Below, piece after piece: positions 680 through 5,816 of a stretch of 5,995 nucleotides of DNA. This stretch comes from Escherichia coli (GTDB lineage Bacteria > Pseudomonadota > Gammaproteobacteria > Enterobacterales > Enterobacteriaceae). Below the pieces are notes generated by a model, which had not been told where the DNA came from, ran no database searches, and saw only the letters and a program-made list of their open reading frames with translations. The position numbers and the translations under genes are program-made. The stretch lies in NCBI RefSeq assembly GCF_003334385.1, contig NZ_QOWN01000079.1. One strand, given 5' to 3'. How positions within the stretch are numbered: position 1 is the first letter of the stretch; each line of letters begins with the position of its first letter.

Positions 680-1087
680 TTGCTGAATCTGCGGTAAATT
701 CGGCGAGAAATAACGTCAGTGCCAGAACAAATGAGCAAAAACATGCAAATGACGTTCTTGATGTAAAAAGAGAATTTTTGTTGCCAGCTTGCCGACATCA
801 ACCAGAAGAGAGCTGAAGAGAAAACAGGGTGAACTGAAGGCAACGATTTTGCTGACTGGAGCACTGAGTTTGGTAAGGTTGTCTGGACAGATAACTGGCG
901 TCCATTTTTTGTAAAACTTGAATCACTGGCAGCAGGAAGAGCTGCTTCATCTGTTACCGCATGGACGTTTTCCGTCATGCCGGGGACCCTTGTAGGTATT
1001 CTGGGTTTTGCAATTATTATGGCTGCTGTGAGTGCGCTTGTTAATGATAAGTTTATTGAGCAGAACAATAAACTTATTGGTATCTGA
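680..1087 (+). pseudogene. remnant of a colicin Ia/Ib-family pore-forming colicin gene (channel-domain fragments only; internal deletion and frame changes)
   Basis: Frame 1 (about 680-765) gives AESAVNSARNNVSARTNEQKHANDVLDV. Frame 2 (782-829) gives LADINQKRAEEKTG followed by a stop at 830-832. Frame 2 (833-1087) gives TEGNDFADWSTEFGKVVWTDNWRPFFVKLESLAAGRAASSVTAWTFSVMPGTLVGILGFAIIMAAVSALVNDKFIEQNNKLIGI*. These match, from memory, the start of the colicin Ia channel domain (NSARNN-SARTNEQKHAND) and its C-terminal hydrophobic hairpin (DW-TEFGK...WRP-FVK...hydrophobic hairpin...KLIGI/KFWGI). About 110 codons of the middle of the channel domain and the entire N-terminal translocation and receptor domains are absent. 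Confidence 0.65.
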
Positions 1088-1099
1088 CATATAATGATG

Positions 1100-1126
1100 C
1101 CCTTTCATTTTCCTGAAAGGGTTTTG
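1100..1126 (+). terminator. rho-independent terminator of the colicin transcript, overlapping the 3' end of the convergent immunity gene
   Basis: Stem CCCTTTCA (1100-1107), loop TTTTCC (1108-1113), stem TGAAAGGG (1114-1121), then TTTT (1122-1125) on the plus strand, 13 nt after the colicin stop codon at 1085-1087. Confidence 0.5.
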
Positions 1127-1452
1127 CAGAATATAAATATTAAGTAAATGGCAACTACAGGAACTGATATAACGAAACAGAATAATTCAAATATTACAGT
1201 TAAGCTTCCGCCAACTGGATTAGTAAAGAAGTCTTTTTGCCAGACTTCTTTCCCTGTAAACCTTATTACCATTTTCTGTATTATCTTCATTGAAAAAGGA
1301 AAAGTAATGGAGCTGATAATGCATCCGATGAACGCATAAAACATTCTTGAATTTTCCTGGTTATCTTTCCATCCCAGATAAAAAACTGTAAGAATAATGA
1401 AACCTGGTATCAGGCTTTTCAGAAAATACTTTACAGATATATCCGCTTTCAT
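1105..1452 (-). CDS. pore-forming-colicin immunity protein (colicin Ia/Ib immunity type), 115 aa, integral membrane
   Basis: Intact 115-aa ORF, convergent with and immediately downstream of the colicin remnant, which is the canonical arrangement for pore-forming colicins. It is strongly hydrophobic with several predicted TM segments (GFIILTVFYLGW, FIGCIISSITFPF, SLTVIFELFCFVISVPVVAIYLIFIF). An AAGGAG ribosome-binding site sits 7 nt upstream of the ATG on the minus strand (plus 1460-1465). Confidence 0.65.
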   Translation of the reverse strand: MKADISVKYFLKSLIPGFIILTVFYLGWKDNQENSRMFYAFIGCIISSITFPFSMKIIQKMVIRFTGKEVWQKDFFTNPVGGSLTVIFELFCFVISVPVVAIYLIFIFCKTLSGK

Positions 1453-1562
1453 CTGGTTTCTCCTTTATTGTCATCGTGTACTGGTGCGTGATAACATAAT
1501 GATAATAATAATCAATAACAATAAACTGTGTCACGTTTACATCATGGAACGGAGGTACTCCT

Positions 1563-1910
1563 GTGACTTTTGAGCAGAAAAAAGCCCGGGCCATTGCCCT
1601 GATGGACAGTAAAAAGATGTGGCGGAGCAATTATGCCCCTCCTCTTCTGCGTATTCTCTGGCGGCTGGGTATCCGGCTTCCGCCATTACCCTTTATGCCG
1701 TTCTGGCAGGTCACGGTGCTGACGGGGGGCTTATGGGGCATTTCCTGGGGATGTGCAATGTGGTTTATCTACTGGGGGCCGTCAGGAATGGTGGCAGGTG
1801 AGGCCATTATTATAAGTATCACGGGTGGTTTTTTGTTCGGACTGCTCATGGCCTCTTTCCACTGGTGGCGCAGGAAAGTTAACCGGCTGCCACCATGGGA
1901 TGATGTGTGA
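1563..1910 (+). CDS. small hypothetical inner-membrane protein (Trp/Gly-rich, two predicted TM helices); GTG start
   Basis: 115-aa ORF starting at GTG 1563, preceded by GGAGG (1549-1553) with a 7-nt spacer. Hydrophobic core VTVLTGGLWGISWGCAMWFIYWG and AIIISITGGFLFGLLMASF. A possible promoter is TTGTCA at 1468-1473 with TAACAT at 1492-1497. Confidence 0.5.
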   Translation: MTFEQKKARAIALMDSKKMWRSNYAPPLLRILWRLGIRLPPLPFMPFWQVTVLTGGLWGISWGCAMWFIYWGPSGMVAGEAIIISITGGFLFGLLMASFHWWRRKVNRLPPWDDV

Positions 1911-1927
1911 ATCGTGCAGGCATGTTT

Positions 1928-2518
1928 TTACGGGGTGACGCTTTCATTAACCTGTACACGAACTTTTATTCCGGCATCATGACAGGCCTGCAGCCACTGC
2001 GCCACTTCCAGCGGATCGCCCTCCCGGCGTACCACCCTGCCTTCTCTGTTCCATAACTGCAGACAGGTACTGCCGTCGAGACGTACCACAAAATCCCCAC
2101 GGCAGGCCTGATATGTCATGCCGTTCAGCTCCACCGCCAGATCAGTGGCAGAAGTGCCGTCTGCGGGCAGACCTGATGCCGGGACCAGCGGCAGTACGAC
2201 GACTTCTGCCGCACGCTGTTCTGCCCGGAGGCGGTCCTGTTCTGCCAGCAGAAGAGGCTGTGCCACGGCCCGGCCGGCGTCCGTCAGCTCCACTGTCAGC
2301 TGCAGGTTCGGAGCGCGCAGGGTACGCAGCCAGCCGGCATCCTCCAGACGACGGCAGGAGGCGCGCAGGTTTGGCCCGTAGACCGGGGCTTCCCCGCTTC
2401 GCTCCAGCACCCGTTCTATGTCCCGCGTCAGTACGGGCCCCGGCCGTTTTTCATCAAGGGCAGCCAGCACAATCAGCACTCTCCGCTGCAGTGGCGACGG
2501 TCGGCGGCTCTGGGTCAT
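1928..2518 (-). CDS. hypothetical protein, 196 aa, G+C-rich; Arg-rich N-terminus with a possible winged-helix DNA-binding region; second gene of a coupled pair
   Basis: ORF MTQSRRPSPLQRRVLIVLAALDEKRPGPVLTRDIERVLERSG...NLRASCRRLEDAGWLRTLR...; its ATG (2518-2516) overlaps the TAA of the upstream gene as TAATG, indicating translational coupling. Codon usage is consistently G+C-rich. Function unknown. Confidence 0.55.
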   Translation of the reverse strand: MTQSRRPSPLQRRVLIVLAALDEKRPGPVLTRDIERVLERSGEAPVYGPNLRASCRRLEDAGWLRTLRAPNLQLTVELTDAGRAVAQPLLLAEQDRLRAEQRAAEVVVLPLVPASGLPADGTSATDLAVELNGMTYQACRGDFVVRLDGSTCLQLWNREGRVVRREGDPLEVAQWLQACHDAGIKVRVQVNESVTP

Positions 2519-2775
2519 TACCTGTCATCCTCCGGCCAGATGAGCTTTCTGAGGCGCTGAAAGTCGGCGTCAATGAGCTCCGGTCTCTTTATGGCATTCA
2601 TTGAGGCATAGCCATTTATGGCCAGTTCATGCCAGAAGATCAGCACTGCTCCGGCTTTGGCTGACTCGCAGAGATAAATTGCGCCCTGGCTGTCCAGATT
2701 GCATTCCCGGATGCGTCGTTCCGCAAACCGGGTCAGTTGTTCATAGCTGAGTGAAAACATCCTTTCTTCATCCAT
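2518..2775 (-). CDS. hypothetical small protein (~85 aa), first gene of the coupled minus-strand pair
   Basis: The track ORF 2518-2892 has an AT-rich N-terminal extension that overlaps the palindromic repeats. The preferred start is the ATG at 2775-2773, preceded by GGAG with an 8-nt spacer, giving MDEERMFSLSYEQLTRFAERRIRECNLDSQGAIYLCESAKAGAVLIFWHELAINGYASMNAIKRPELIDADFQRLRKLIWPEDDR. Confidence 0.45.
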   Translation of the reverse strand: MDEERMFSLSYEQLTRFAERRIRECNLDSQGAIYLCESAKAGAVLIFWHELAINGYASMNAIKRPELIDADFQRLRKLIWPEDDR

Positions 2776-2851
2776 CCTGCACACTCCATCTGATAATGTC
2801 CTGTTAAGAAATAAATCATATTTTGAATCATTTATTTCTGCGCCTGTAAAC

Positions 2852-2904
2852 ATCATATCAGATATGATTATGTGATTAATGATAAATATCATATCAGATA
2901 TGAT
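2852..2904. promoter_or_regulatory. two identical perfect 17-bp palindromes (candidate tandem operators) upstream of the minus-strand operon
   Basis: ATCATATC-A-GATATGAT occurs at 2852-2868 and again at 2888-2904, 36 bp centre to centre. Each copy has 8-bp perfect inverted arms. They lie 80-130 bp upstream of the start at 2775; the AT-rich tract 2921-2933 carries TATAAT-like hexamers on both strands. Confidence 0.5.
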
Positions 2905-3222
2905 TTCATGTGTTTTTCTTGATTATAATATTAGTTGCTGGTTTTCCGCCGCGCAGATCCGGTTTCTGGTGGTCACGGATCTTCCTCTCCCCCACACAAC
3001 GCCACCTCCTATCAGCACAACATGTGGTATCTCATTCGGTTGCTTATGACACTATATGTTGTGTCATCTCCCTGACCTGTGATGCGCCGCGCAGGGGCGG
3101 AAAACAGCGATATGATTATTTTCTCAGCGTGGTACACTTCCGGAAAGTTGTGATATTCCGGAAAGTCGGATCTGACGGAAACGGCTCTCCGGTAATTTAA
3201 CGGCGTGGTTATATGGATGCTT

Positions 3223-3302
3223 GTTATCATGGTGATGATGATAACGGCATGATGTTATCAGACGGCGTGACGGTAAGGGCAGTGATGATGGATGACGTTA
3301 TC
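3223..3302. repeat. cluster of alternating GTTATC / GATAAC hexamers and GTGATGATG repeats upstream of the recombinase operon
   Basis: GTTATC at 3223-3228, GATAAC at 3240-3245, GTTATC at 3254-3259 and 3297-3302; GTGATGATG at 3232-3240 and 3282-3290. All lie 40-120 bp upstream of the ATG at 3343. Confidence 0.3.
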
Positions 3303-3342
3303 GCATGACCGTCCCTGCCCGGAAAAGAAAAAGGAGTCACCC

Positions 3343-3756
3343 ATGTTTTTTATTGAGAATGAAGGTCAGGCTGTCGCCGGAACGGATTACTGGCAGTCTG
3401 TACAGGCGCAGGCCGGATATGTCTACCTCAGCTGGAATGCCGGCGCAGCCAGGCTGCTTGTCCCGGATGCGGCAAAACATTTACTCAGGGAGATGCGGGG
3501 GGCTGAGTACGTCATCATCAGTAAGGGAACGCTGAATGGCCGCGATGCGCTGGAACTGGTATTTGAAGACGGCAGCGATGCGCCGTTTGTGATCCACATG
3601 CTGAGTGAGCAGTGCGATCGCCTGCTCCCCGAAAACAACCAGGGAGGGGGTTTTGTTGTCACCGTCTGGACGCGTGGCGGTAACCAGCGCCGTTATCCGG
3701 GAAAGTACCGTGTTGTGGAAAACCTGCCCGACGTTTCCCCGTGGAGTGAACACTGA
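3343..3756 (+). CDS. hypothetical protein (137 aa), translationally coupled to the downstream tyrosine recombinase
   Basis: ATG 3343 is preceded by AAGGAG (3331-3336) with a 6-nt spacer. Its stop TGA (3754-3756) is followed one nucleotide later by the recombinase ATG (TGAtATG). Sequence MFFIENEGQAVAGTDYWQSVQ...; no motif I recognise. Confidence 0.55.
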   Translation: MFFIENEGQAVAGTDYWQSVQAQAGYVYLSWNAGAARLLVPDAAKHLLREMRGAEYVIISKGTLNGRDALELVFEDGSDAPFVIHMLSEQCDRLLPENNQGGGFVVTVWTRGGNQRRYPGKYRVVENLPDVSPWSEH

Positions 3757-3757
3757 T

Positions 3758-4537
3758 ATGCAGCACCTGCCGGCACCGATCCACCATGCCCGGGATGCTG
3801 CTCAGCTTCCTGTTGCCATCGATTATCCGGCAGCGCTGGCACTCCGCCAGATGTCGATGGTTCATGATGAACTGCCAAAATACCTGCTGGCCCCTGAAGT
3901 GAGCGCCCTGCTCCATTACGTGCCGGATCTGCGCCGCAAAATGCTGCTGGCCACACTGTGGAACACCGGTGCGCGCATTAATGAAGCACTGGCGCTGACG
4001 CGGGGGGATTTTTCGCTCACGCCTCCGTATCCGTTTGTGCAGCTGGCCACTCTGAAGCAGCGGACAGAAAAAGCCGCCAGGACGGCAGGAAGGATGCCCG
4101 CCGGTCAGCAGACTCACCGTCTGGTTCCGCTCTCCGACGCCTGGTACGTCAGCCAGCTGCAGACGATGGTGGCCACACTGAAAATCCCCATGGAACGGCG
4201 TAATAAACGAACAGGCAGGACAGAGAAAGCGCGGATCTGGGAAGTGACGGACAGAACGGTCAGGACCTGGATTGGGGAGGCGGTTGCCGCCGCTGCCGCT
4301 GATGGTGTGACGTTCTCTGTCCCGGTCACGCCACATACGTTCCGCCATTCCTATGCGATGCATATGCTGTATGCCGGTATACCGCTGAAGGTCCTGCAGA
4401 GTCTGATGGGGCATAAGTCCATCAGCTCAACGGAGGTCTACACGAAGGTGTTTGCGCTGGATGTGGCTGCACGGCACCGGGTGCAGTTTTCGATGCCTGA
4501 GTCCGATGCGGTGTCTATGCTCAAAAGAATTCCATAA
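3758..4537 (+). CDS. tyrosine site-specific recombinase (plasmid multimer-resolution type, ResD/XerD-like), 259 aa
   Basis: Contains the tyrosine-recombinase signature residues: box I Arg (LWNTGARINEALAL), HTFRHSYA (H-x-x-R), and LMGHKSISSTEVYTKV with the catalytic Tyr. The track ORF 3605-4537 is trimmed to the ATG at 3758, which abuts the upstream stop. From memory it resembles the F-plasmid ResD protein. Confidence 0.85.
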   Translation: MQHLPAPIHHARDAAQLPVAIDYPAALALRQMSMVHDELPKYLLAPEVSALLHYVPDLRRKMLLATLWNTGARINEALALTRGDFSLTPPYPFVQLATLKQRTEKAARTAGRMPAGQQTHRLVPLSDAWYVSQLQTMVATLKIPMERRNKRTGRTEKARIWEVTDRTVRTWIGEAVAAAAADGVTFSVPVTPHTFRHSYAMHMLYAGIPLKVLQSLMGHKSISSTEVYTKVFALDVAARHRVQFSMPESDAVSMLKRIP

Positions 4538-4560
4538 GCTCTGACTTTTTTAAATCCCTT

Positions 4561-4712
4561 TCGGATATCTCATGGATATATTATCGGTATTTCATATTCT
4601 GTTGACATGCAGGACCGGTATAGAGTAAAAGAACATCTATTGAGTACCTCTTGGATATCCGAAAGGTGTCTTATGGGGTCTTTATGGGTATTACATGTGG
4701 ATTCTGGAGATA
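4561..4712. repeat. centromere/operator-like iteron cluster with promoter upstream of parA
   Basis: Repeated [C/T]GG[A/G]TAT motifs: cGGATATc 4562-4569, tGGATATa 4573-4580, cGGTATt 4585-4591, tGGATATCc 4652-4660 (palindromic GGATATCC), tGGGGTCt 4674-4681, tGGGTATt 4685-4692, tGGATTCt 4698-4705. A consensus -35 TTGACA sits at 4602-4607 but no clear -10 was found. Confidence 0.45.
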
Positions 4713-4716
4713 CACT

Positions 4717-5361
4717 ATGCCTGTTATTGCTAATACGCATCCCAAAGGTGGTGTGGGGAAGACAACTTCATCCGTAAACATTGTTGGTGAAATGAAGTCT
4801 GATACAGTTGATCTGGATACTCATACCGGGCTTTCTATCATTCTGGGGCTGAGACCTGAAGGAAAAGAAATTTCCGTGAAAGTACCCAAAACAGTGGATG
4901 AGTTAATCGAAATTATGACTCCCTACAAGAACAGCGATAAGACGTTACTTATTGACTGTGGGGGATTTGACTCAGATCTTACCCGTACTGCGATTGCCTT
5001 TGCAGACTGCGTTATTGTCCCTTCAAAAGACTCCCTGACTGAACGTATTGGTTTGATGCATTTTGATGGAGTACTGGACGAAATCAGCTCTATCATGGGG
5101 ACCGATATAACTGCTCACCTGTATCTCTGTAAAGTTAATCCTAACAAGAAGAAATTCCCTAAGCTTGATGCAATCCTGCCATCGTTCAAACATCTGAAGC
5201 TGATGAAGAGCCGCATTTCTGCTCGTGCAGAATTTGAGGATGTCATTGAGACTGGGATGGGAATCACTGAGTCTGTTCATGGGCGCTATTCGGCAGGAGG
5301 TAAGGAAGTTATTGCCCTGATCGAAGAAATCAATCATCTGATTGAAAATAACAAACAGTAA
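4717..5361 (+). CDS. parA: small ParA-family partition ATPase (type Ib, deviant Walker A), 214 aa
   Basis: N-terminal MPVIANTHPKGGVGKTT carries the deviant Walker A motif KGGxGKT. A hydrophobic strand ending in Asp (TLLIDCGG) resembles the Walker B region. The size is typical of small ParA/ParF-type proteins. GGAGA lies 6 nt upstream of ATG 4717. The track ORF starting at 4651 (TTG) is an N-terminal over-extension. Confidence 0.8.
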   Translation: MPVIANTHPKGGVGKTTSSVNIVGEMKSDTVDLDTHTGLSIILGLRPEGKEISVKVPKTVDELIEIMTPYKNSDKTLLIDCGGFDSDLTRTAIAFADCVIVPSKDSLTERIGLMHFDGVLDEISSIMGTDITAHLYLCKVNPNKKKFPKLDAILPSFKHLKLMKSRISARAEFEDVIETGMGITESVHGRYSAGGKEVIALIEEINHLIENNKQ

Positions 5362-5362
5362 G

Positions 5363-5447
5363 GTGTGTCTATTGGGTATCCATATAGTATCCTTTGGGCT
5401 TTTAATGGATATCTTTTAAGTATCTAACAAACATCCTGGGTTATCTC
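5363..5447. repeat. iteron cluster between parA and the adaptor gene
   Basis: tGGGTATCc 5373-5381, tAGTATCc 5385-5392, tGGATATCt 5406-5414, aAGTATCt 5418-5425, GGGTTATCTCATG 5438-5450. GTGTGTCT at 5363-5370 recurs at 5785-5792, and TATCTCATG at 5442-5450 recurs at 4566-4574. Confidence 0.4.
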
Positions 5448-5756
5448 ATGAGCAAAGCGAAATTTAGTGCACAGGCTGAAAAACTGAAAAACCTGGTGGA
5501 TTCTGCCAGATTACAAACTTCTTCTTCTGCCGTAACAGCAACAGCCCCGTCTCAGCCAAATGAAGGTGCAGAGGTAGTTTCAGGTCGTCCCGTGGCTGCC
5601 AGGACGAAGGCTAAGAATCTTAAGGCCATACCGCTGTCGTATTTTGAAGCTCATGCGGAACTTAAAGCGACCAGTAAAACATCTCTGGATTTTAGCTCAT
5701 ATATTATTGAGGCTATAAGAGAGAAGCTTGAACGTGATGGTGCAATAGGTCAATAA
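5448..5756 (+). CDS. small partition adaptor / centromere-binding protein (ParG/ParB-like, probable ribbon-helix-helix C-terminus), 102 aa
   Basis: Sits immediately downstream of the small ParA in the same orientation. It has a low-complexity Ser/Thr/Ala-rich N-terminal tail and a C-terminal segment (KAIPLSYFEAHAELKATSKTSLDFSSYIIEAIREKLER) consistent with a strand-helix-helix DNA-binding fold. Flanked by the iteron clusters. Confidence 0.55.
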   Translation: MSKAKFSAQAEKLKNLVDSARLQTSSSAVTATAPSQPNEGAEVVSGRPVAARTKAKNLKAIPLSYFEAHAELKATSKTSLDFSSYIIEAIREKLERDGAIGQ

Positions 5757-5759
5757 ACT

Positions 5760-5816
5760 ATCGGATACCTTAAGGGTATCTGATGTGTGTCTTTTAAATG
5801 CGTTATGGGGATTCTT
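5760..5816. repeat. iteron cluster downstream of the adaptor gene
   Basis: cGGATACCt 5762-5770, aGGGTATCt 5773-5781, GTGTGTCT 5785-5792, tatGGGGATTCt 5804-5815. These are the same motif families as the clusters at 4561-4712 and 5363-5447. Confidence 0.4.

Follow-up and report, generated by a model that had tools for sequence, protein, structure and literature searches.

We show that positions 1563-1910 (plus strand) of a 5,995-nucleotide stretch of Escherichia coli DNA, hereafter the window, are a real and intact gene encoding an ordinary member of the DUF6404 family, a kind of protein that is already catalogued though uncharacterised, and that nothing sets the window protein apart within this family. 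The gene belongs to plasmid DNA flanking an exchangeable colicin Ia/Ib-immunity cassette and not to the cassette itself. The reading we favour, at a probability of about 0.6, is that of an uncharacterised inner-membrane hairpin acting autonomously via its cytoplasmic face, with its gene placed beside the colicin cassette at the edge of a cargo-swapping hotspot. The protein is probably neither a pore nor a lysis protein nor a colicin immunity protein. The features of the locus are as follows.

1105..1452, minus strand: colicin Ib-type immunity gene (115 aa), a neighbour only; Pfam PF03526 (E=8.6e-7), 90% identical to ColIb-P9 Imm
1468..1497, plus strand: candidate sigma70-like promoter of the DUF6404 gene, TTGTCA-18 nt-TAACAT with an upstream TG; predicted by consensus scan
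1505..1534, minus strand: candidate sigma70-like promoter of the immunity gene, GTGACA-18 nt-TATTAT; predicted by consensus scan
1551..1555, plus strand: Shine-Dalgarno sequence GGAGG, 7 nt 5' of the GTG; read directly, conserved in colicin Ia and Ib plasmids
1563..1910, plus strand: coding sequence of the 115-aa DUF6404-family protein ('ybaA' in some IncI1 records); ORF list, Pfam PF19942, phrog_31022, RefSeq plasmid CDS, purifying selection
1563..1700, plus strand: predicted cytoplasmic N-terminal region, codons 1-46; AF2 helices 3-16, 21-24 and 27-34 at pLDDT 94-97, 9 K/R
Codons 1-46, plus strand: motif SNYAPPLLRxLWxLG...PPxPF within the N-terminal region; A10, P26, P27, W33, G36 and P41 conserved
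1701..1775, plus strand: predicted transmembrane helix 1, Trp/Gly-rich (WGxxMW), codons 47-71; AF2, uncharged, G55, W62, G63, M66, W67 and W71 conserved
1776..1793, plus strand: predicted periplasmic turn of 6 residues, codons 72-77; least conserved segment of the family
1794..1862, plus strand: predicted transmembrane helix 2 with G89xxxG93, codons 78-100; Kyte-Doolittle peak 2.09, part of AF2 helix 78-106
1823..1836, plus strand: G/T run GGGTGGTTTTTTGT, codons 87-92, frameshift site in ColIb-P9 and other plasmids; ColIb-P9 alignment
1887..1898, plus strand: predicted C-terminal cytoplasmic LPxW motif, codons 109-112; conservation across 73 sequences

The open reading frame runs from a GTG start to a TGA stop and is translated into the 115-aa protein MTFEQKKARAIALMDSKKMWRSNYAPPLLRILWRLGIRLPPLPFMPFWQVTVLTGGLWGISWGCAMWFIYWGPSGMVAGEAIIISITGGFLFGLLMASFHWWRRKVNRLPPWDDV. 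The GTG start, which had been proposed in the original prediction, is borne out by the ORF list, by the GGAGG sequence preceding it and by near-identical plasmids, for which RefSeq/PGAP annotates the identical coding sequence with the identical start. Plasmid copies start with GTG, whereas the chromosomal DUF6404 homologues have ATG at the aligned position (M-T/S-F-E...); since the Pfam model aligns from residue 1 and the homologues' ATG falls on the aligned position, the start codon can be regarded as fixed. The protein had also been described as Trp/Gly-rich, of which the Trp part stands, with 10 of the 115 residues being Trp (8.7%; binomial P ~1e-5 against a 1.5% E. coli background), while the Gly content of 9.6% is weak and not significant. 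Charged residues are completely absent from residues 47-79. The only cysteine, C64, is located inside transmembrane helix 1, and the N-terminus is hydrophilic (MTFEQKKARA...).

The original prediction could not recognise the protein as a known family, a statement overturned by the homology search, which reveals a full-length DUF6404/PF19942 member that carries this name, or 'ybaA', in deposited plasmids. The Pfam search returns DUF6404 alone (PF19942; E=2.1e-37, score 128.4), with residues 1-114 aligned on positions 1-114 of the 115-position model, and the sole match in PHROGs is phrog_31022, annotated as 'unknown function' (E=1e-37). RefSeq uses the product name 'DUF6404 family protein' for the gene in about 2,000-3,000 enterobacterial plasmids, and one GenBank plasmid record names it ybaA; the literature matches for 'ybaA' concern unrelated genes of class 1 integrons and of the F plasmid and were discarded. 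A literature search on DUF6404, PF19942 and the WP accessions found nothing, and searches of NCBIfam, PADLOC and PDB sequences, done with the single sequence and with a profile, gave no match, PADLOC-DB yielding 0 families at E<=0.01. The window protein has the length and architecture expected of the family, i.e. about 110-130 aa (here 115 aa), a soluble N-terminal part and, after it, a hydrophobic hairpin of two helices, and it carries all five residues conserved across 73 members (A10, P26, P41, G93 and W112). It thus shares with Pfam DUF6404, phrog_31022 and the 'YbaA' of IncI1-type plasmids the same length, the full-length HMM match and these five residues.

When 1.84 billion representative proteins were scanned in full, 772 clusters at 50% identity were retrieved (E<=1e-3), nearly all of 112-125 aa and aligning end to end. 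All members of the 73-sequence alignment of diverse relatives match DUF6404 (73/73), and informative domain fusions were found in none of the longer relatives, the extensions being extra hydrophobic segments or mis-called starts. A search for related loci with an alignment of relatives found only 5 genome loci and 3 viral loci, the latter on three IMG/VR contigs. Structure matches in AFDB50 are relatives only, from alpha-, beta- and gamma-proteobacteria, some of which are labelled DUF2628. Compared with the copy on the colicin Ia plasmid, the window gene shows a dN/dS of 0.10, and compared with chromosomal homologues at 55-60% identity pN is ~0.28 with pS saturated at ~0.8. The family is under purifying selection and spans the alpha-, beta- and gamma-proteobacteria.

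The structural model agrees with the earlier proposal of a small two-helix membrane protein, the topology check yielding two hydrophobic AF2 helices at residues 47-71 and 78-106. Built on the 73-sequence alignment, the AF2 model (pLDDT 96.9, pTM 0.83) comprises helices 3-16, 21-24 and 27-34, a Pro-rich connector, transmembrane helix 1 (47-71), a turn of six residues, helix 78-106, which combines transmembrane helix 2 with a juxtamembrane helix, and a short C-terminal turn. Of the lysine and arginine residues counted, 9 fall within the first 46 positions, 4 within the last 15 and none in the turn of six residues, a positive-inside pattern seen in the window protein and family-wide, which argues for a hairpin with both N- and C-terminus inside. 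We infer an inner-membrane protein whose two ends are cytoplasmic and of which only about six residues face the periplasm; its cytoplasmic parts would consist of the structured N-terminal ~45 residues and a basic juxtamembrane stretch with the LPxW tail at its end. The conservation is distributed unevenly. The motifs PPLxRLLWxLG...PPPHF, WGxxMW, AGxxFGLxMA (containing G89xxxG93) and LPxW recur in the family; A10, P26, P41 and G93 are each at least 93% conserved in the 73-sequence alignment, with G93 present in 99% and G89 in 89% of the family. Within the LPxW motif, L109 is found in 89% and P110 in 82%, and W112 is the only invariant residue of the family (73/73 sequences). The periplasmic turn, by contrast, has a mean column entropy of 3.23 compared to 2.1-2.4 elsewhere, at a family mean length of 5.9 aa. 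A Foldseek search of the PDB with the AF2 model gave no match below E=1e-3. A tandem-fusion model, serving as a crude test of homodimerisation, reached a pTM of 0.48, with both halves folding well and their docking not being confident, an outcome that is still compatible with oligomers.

The gene is divergent from the colicin immunity gene and shares an intergenic region with it, as had been noted before and as is confirmed here by the immunity gene at 1105..1452 (-), a gap of 110 bp and promoter-like sites on both strands. Within 1050-3400 the consensus scan picked out two sigma70-like sites, which both fall into the 110-bp intergenic region, back to back and one per strand. Shuffled sequences give 3.1 sites per 2,351 nt, so the count for the whole region is not above the shuffle expectation; for 110 nt about 0.15 sites are expected as a rough estimate, in an intergenic region that is AT-rich and for sites that are consensus matches only. 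Judged from these matches, the DUF6404 gene is probably transcribed from a sigma70-type promoter of its own, placed back to back with the predicted promoter of the immunity gene. The predicted minus-strand promoter lies inside the predicted 5' leader of the DUF6404 gene, in a block conserved between Ia and Ib plasmids. A LexA box (CTGT-N8-ACAG, up to 1 mismatch) was found neither in nor near the intergenic region. Downstream, a convergent gene (1928..2518, minus strand) ends 17 nt past the DUF6404 stop codon; this 17-nt gap holds no terminator-like fold, and Rfam families are absent from the window.

By comparison with reference plasmids, the window represents the 'Col'-type variable region of IncI1-like plasmids in mosaic form. 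Its positions 887-2979 correspond to ColIb-P9 9974-12075 at 93% identity and positions 2971-5918 to ColIb-P9 15626-18575 at 98.7%, the intervening ColIb-P9 segment 12076-15625, which contains the annotated ibfA ORF as well as a DUF4238 gene, being missing. The colicin Ib gene itself is present as remnants only (667-824 and 887-1087). When the window is aligned jointly with a colicin Ia plasmid and ColIb-P9, the immunity genes of the Ia and Ib types find no alignment, homology between the Ia and Ib plasmids resumes at ~1468, i.e. at the -35 hexamer of the predicted plus-strand promoter, and the DUF6404 gene is more than 95% identical throughout. The GC content of the DUF6404 ORF is 54% compared to 32% for the immunity gene. 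The immunity protein and the DUF6404 protein share no similarity in BLASTP (E=14), and the Pfam search gave no match of the DUF6404 ORF to PF03526, the colicin E1/microcin immunity family to which the neighbour 1105..1452 (-) belongs. We counted 681 plasmids with an Ib-type and 1,025 with an Ia-type immunity gene; with about 1,700 immunity plasmids as compared to about 2,050 DUF6404 plasmids, linkage to colicin immunity is frequent in the plasmid lineage. The pattern of this linkage is that of a conserved flank and not of a co-varying partner. As the gene belongs to the cassette flank, its adjacency to the immunity gene reflects a position at the hotspot edge in IncI1/IncF plasmids and not a shared function.

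The full-length E. coli-type gene was found in 2,054 plasmids, and in an evenly spaced sample about 70% of the full-length plasmid copies bear the annotation of an intact CDS. Truncations, frameshifts and deletion junctions, many of them independent of one another, are observed in plasmids. ColIb-P9 carries GGGGGGGGGTTTT at the G/T run, resulting in a frameshift and a 106-aa ORF, at which RefSeq shows no CDS; this is probably a real allele, since the same break recurs in P0020 (50 members) and P0021 (85 members), two independent plasmid clusters. The R64-type ('Delta') plasmids have lost all of the gene but its final 75 nt, which adjoin an AAA-family ATPase gene. With 1,557 nt this ATPase gene has the length reported for ibfA of R64, and the class of 75-nt 3' remnants comprises 731 plasmid records. 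The frequent truncation suggests that the gene may confer little benefit in plasmids.

Outside the colicin plasmids, homologues of the gene turn up on chromosomes, in prophages and on plasmids, in more than 12 contexts that are unrelated to one another and all lack colicin. On a Klebsiella chromosome the gene has a secreted beta-propeller-like protein gene on one side and a sigma54 activator gene on the other; in Xenorhabdus stockiae it is part of a prophage, preceded by a gene for an Mrr_cat nuclease and followed by Arc/Ant genes; in K. aerogenes it is flanked by NUDIX and GIY-YIG genes, in Enterobacter by DUF4354 and Lcl_C genes, and on a metagenomic enterobacterial contig by two genes for TonB-dependent receptors. 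Further metagenomic contigs place it after a 98-aa ORF, after a rotamase gene or after dxs, in Pseudoxanthomonas it is located 4 nt past a P-II gene, and in Erwinia it adjoins a siderophore cluster. A Klebsiella IncFIB plasmid carrying the gene resembles a phage-plasmid, and two Klebsiella phage records of 110 kb each encode a homologue (2 of 50,697 phage records). A homologue at 54% identity is carried by about 950 Klebsiella IncFII(K)-type plasmids, 20 nt past finO and bordering a variable slot, which in one example holds a bacteriocin with an S-type-pyocin domain (klebicin-like) together with its immunity gene, 1.4 kb from the DUF6404 gene, and in another example unrelated genes. The finding of a bacteriocin module near the gene in two unrelated plasmid lineages (IncI1/IncF and IncFII(K)) keeps a bacteriocin-related role conceivable. 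None of the more than 12 neighbourhoods compared revealed a conserved neighbour or operon partner.

With the cytoplasmic and helix segments conserved, the turn minimal and variable and a conserved adjacent gene lacking, the protein most likely works alone at the cytoplasmic face. We propose that it would be a membrane-anchored module in the inner membrane, N-in/C-in, which may engage, on the cytoplasmic side of this membrane, a host component that is broadly conserved and would do so without a partner gene. This mechanism is derived from architecture and conservation only. Dividing the possible roles roughly, the modulation of a host membrane process takes the largest share, tentatively and at slightly less than even odds; an exclusion or protection function of mobile elements, discussed below, takes a clearly smaller one; a role linked to colicin is improbable; and roles of another kind make up the remainder.

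The leading alternative, which we nevertheless consider unlikely, is a factor protecting mobile elements by blocking phage DNA entry or bacteriocin import at a step in the inner membrane, in the manner of superinfection exclusion or tolerance, or by triggering abortive infection. The family has a PHROG of its own, phrog_31022, and is carried by the two 110-kb Klebsiella phage records and the three IMG/VR contigs. The Xenorhabdus copy lies in its prophage between the Mrr_cat nuclease gene and the Arc/Ant immunity-region genes, and this location beside an Mrr-like nuclease fits a role in defence or exclusion. The IncI1/IncF gene borders a slot occupied by colicin Ia/Ib or by an AAA-ATPase gene sized like the anti-phage ibfA of R64, and the IncFII(K) gene adjoins the variable slot with the klebicin-like bacteriocin. 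Weighed against this, the PADLOC search is without a match, the chromosomal neighbourhoods are mostly metabolic or regulatory and not defence islands, merely 2 of the 50,697 phage records carry the gene, and a 6-residue, unconserved loop seems ill suited to recognising phage or colicin parts that arrive from outside. Colicin Ib plasmids encode another small and hydrophobic protein of the same size in the same variable region, ColIb-P9 IbfA (114-aa ORF, NC_002122 13401-13745), which has been implicated in abortive infection of T5/BF23. We considered that the DUF6404 gene could be this ColIb ibfA/abi gene and rejected it: ibfA is a different ORF missing from the window, and its product is unrelated (best BLASTP hit E=0.41 over 15 residues). 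This lack of relatedness also weighs against the protection reading, as does the frameshift of the DUF6404 gene in ColIb-P9, the very plasmid with the T5/BF23 abortive phenotype. A wider version, according to which DUF6404 proteins form a new class of single-gene inner-membrane protection factors borne by mobile elements and disabling, from the cytoplasmic face, a conserved host component needed by phage DNA or bacteriocins, is more doubtful still; if true, it would explain the gene's occurrence at the edges of the colicin and klebicin slots and in a prophage accessory region.

The original prediction had suggested an additional immunity or lysis factor, and our data speak against both halves of this suggestion, for immunity and lysis alike through the divergent base composition, the missing similarity to the immunity protein, the flank conserved between Ia and Ib plasmids, the homologues without colicin, the ColIb-P9 frameshift, and the lack of a LexA box, a lipobox and an endolysin neighbour. 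Immunity to pore-forming colicins operates within the inner membrane, and an accessory immunity or tolerance factor for colicin Ia/Ib cooperating there with Imm would account for the gene adjoining the immunity gene across a common divergent control region and for the similar numbers of immunity and full-length DUF6404 plasmids. The immunity proteins of PF03526 (Ia/Ib/E1) also resemble the DUF6404 protein in being integral inner-membrane proteins of ~115 aa encoded beside a colicin locus, probably from a constitutive promoter of their own. They have three or four transmembrane helices compared to two in the DUF6404 protein, which shows no sequence or HMM similarity to them, does not co-vary with colicin type, has its conserved parts on the cytoplasmic side and is widespread without colicins. 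One allele flanks two different immunity genes, so the protein is not matched in specificity to either; its base composition is unlike that of the cassette, the colicin gene in the window is merely a remnant, and the frameshifted copy belongs to ColIb-P9, the reference colicin Ib-immune producer. Such a function is very unlikely. Equally improbable is a functionless hitch-hiker decaying in the plasmid lineage under relaxed selection and by chance intact in the window: the many independent disruptions, the 731 plasmids with only the 3' remnant and the ColIb-P9 frameshift are what such decay would leave, but the copy in the window is undamaged and preceded by a good Shine-Dalgarno sequence, dN/dS between plasmid copies is 0.10, most full-length copies in the evenly spaced sample are annotated as intact, and the family is conserved across three proteobacterial classes. 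We give least credence of all to a lysis or release protein, holin-like or standing in for the lysis gene which colicin Ia/Ib operons, to our knowledge, lack, and permeabilising the inner membrane. Class II holins and pinholins, e.g. S21 of phage 21, have two transmembrane helices, an N-in/C-in topology and a charged C-terminus; the DUF6404 protein is superficially similar in being a small N-in/C-in two-helix protein with a basic C-terminal tail, and the GxxxG motif of transmembrane helix 2 could mediate oligomerisation, although the tandem-dimer model gives no confident self-association. Its cytoplasmic N-terminal domain of 45 residues is longer than that of class II holins and well conserved, which is unusual for holins; its gene is solitary on chromosomes and under purifying selection, a lysis cassette is absent from the window and from the homologue neighbourhoods, none of the contexts examined having an endolysin or spanin gene nearby, and neither Pfam nor PHROGs returns a holin family. 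Colicin lysis lipoproteins (e.g. ColE1 Kil/CelA) have a signal peptide with a lipobox cysteine, a mature peptide of ~30 aa and a gene downstream of the colicin under LexA control. They share with the DUF6404 protein that a small envelope protein is encoded beside a colicin/immunity pair. The DUF6404 protein is twice their size and has neither signal peptide nor lipobox cysteine, so it is not a colicin lysis lipoprotein, and its gene is not located downstream of the colicin in an SOS operon, but on the far side of the immunity gene and divergent from the colicin transcript.

The inner-membrane hairpin acting alone at the cytoplasmic face thus stays our preferred reading, in which the DUF6404 gene adds nothing to colicin biology. 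What the analysis establishes for 1563-1910 is that the gene was called correctly and encodes a catalogued 'domain of unknown function', with annotations existing in thousands of records. Its wider interest lies in its prevalence: of the 72,556 sequenced plasmids about 3,000 carry the gene or a close relative, most of them being conjugative plasmids of Escherichia, Salmonella and Klebsiella, and the family is conserved in three proteobacterial classes. If the gene alters the susceptibility to phages or bacteriocins or the fitness cost of plasmids, it would be relevant to how resistance and virulence plasmids fare ecologically. As a side observation, the close upstream neighbours of the gene differ from case to case, being the P-II gene in Pseudoxanthomonas, the 98-aa ORF on a metagenomic contig and finO in the Klebsiella plasmids.

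The slot bordered by the DUF6404 gene (window 1563..1910, plus strand) holds either colicin Ia or Ib together with its immunity gene, or else a gene encoding an AAA-family ATPase. In R64-type plasmids, exemplified by NZ_MN641485.1 (2276-4075), the ATPase gene adjoins what is left of the DUF6404 gene, a 75-nt remnant from its 3' end, and therefore the DUF6404 gene marks one edge of the slot. The class carrying this 75-nt remnant comprises 731 plasmid records, and the ATPase gene of R64-type plasmids measures 1,557 nt, which is the size reported for R64 ibfA.

Of the colicin Ib structural gene, the window keeps only two remnants, both within 667-1087:

667-824, colicin Ib remnant 1, 85% to cib (colicin Ib structural gene) 9446-9614
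887-1087, colicin Ib remnant 2, the 3' end of the gene

The colicin Ib-type immunity gene is still intact, making it an 'orphan' immunity gene. The DUF6404 gene itself is broken in some plasmids, with a G/T run at codons 87-92 (window 1823-1836, corresponding to 10918-10935 of ColIb-P9) being a recurrent break point; frameshifted alleles are found in ColIb-P9 and in two clusters of plasmid copies, P0020 and P0021. In other plasmid copies the gene is cut by junctions with foreign sequence at codons ~37, 69, 84, 92 and 97.

Homologues in other hosts show further neighbourhoods. At the end of the tra region of Klebsiella IncFII(K) plasmids, exemplified by NZ_CP061397.1 (5385-10066), a DUF6404 gene of 54% identity has its start 20 nt past finO. 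In this one example it lies 1.4 kb upstream of a bacteriocin with an S-type pyocin domain and the accompanying immunity gene, representing a second, independent case of a DUF6404 gene near a bacteriocin module. The same post-finO slot bordered by the DUF6404 gene carries different cargo in another plasmid. In a single Pseudoxanthomonas lineage (4658-5363 of the locus) a gene of the P-II (GlnB/GlnK) type is followed 4 nt on by a DUF6404 gene, in the place that amtB often occupies behind glnK.

Convergent with the DUF6404 gene lies a two-gene unit with a GC content of up to 70%:

1928-2518, minus strand, gene 1 of the unit, 196-aa product
2518-2892, minus strand, gene 2 of the unit, 124-aa product

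The unit is kept in ColIb-P9, in colicin Ia plasmids and in R64-type plasmids, and its only family matches are weak ones, to phrog_19460 and to a VpaChn25_0724-like N-terminal region. Two identical 17-bp palindromes (ATCATATCAGATATGAT) at 2852-2868 and 2888-2904, spaced by 36 bp and both lying inside 23-nt direct repeats, overlap the start of the 2518-2892 gene; the pair is probably an operator for divergent or convergent small regulators at this place.

Beyond this unit, 3.5 kb of ColIb-P9 (12076-15625) are absent from the window, the junction being at 2971/2979. The absent segment contains a DUF4238 gene and a 114-aa ORF annotated as ibfA, a name that stands for abortive infection by T5/BF23; two further ORFs also lie in it.

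At the left end, the first ~75 nt resemble, by eye, the beginning of a TnpB gene of the IS66 family. Positions 75-450 match a portion of an ABC-transporter gene at 98.7% identity; that gene comes from a lasso-peptide (microcin-like) cluster of plasmid pEco118UIb, the remainder of this cluster being missing from the window. Towards the right end lie two genes:

4717..5361, ParA-like gene with a ParA match
5448..5756, 102-aa gene

Both are flanked by repeated motifs of the GGATATC/GGTATC type, recognised by eye at 4560-4680, 5370-5440 and 5760-5800, which probably represent partition-site or operator repeats.
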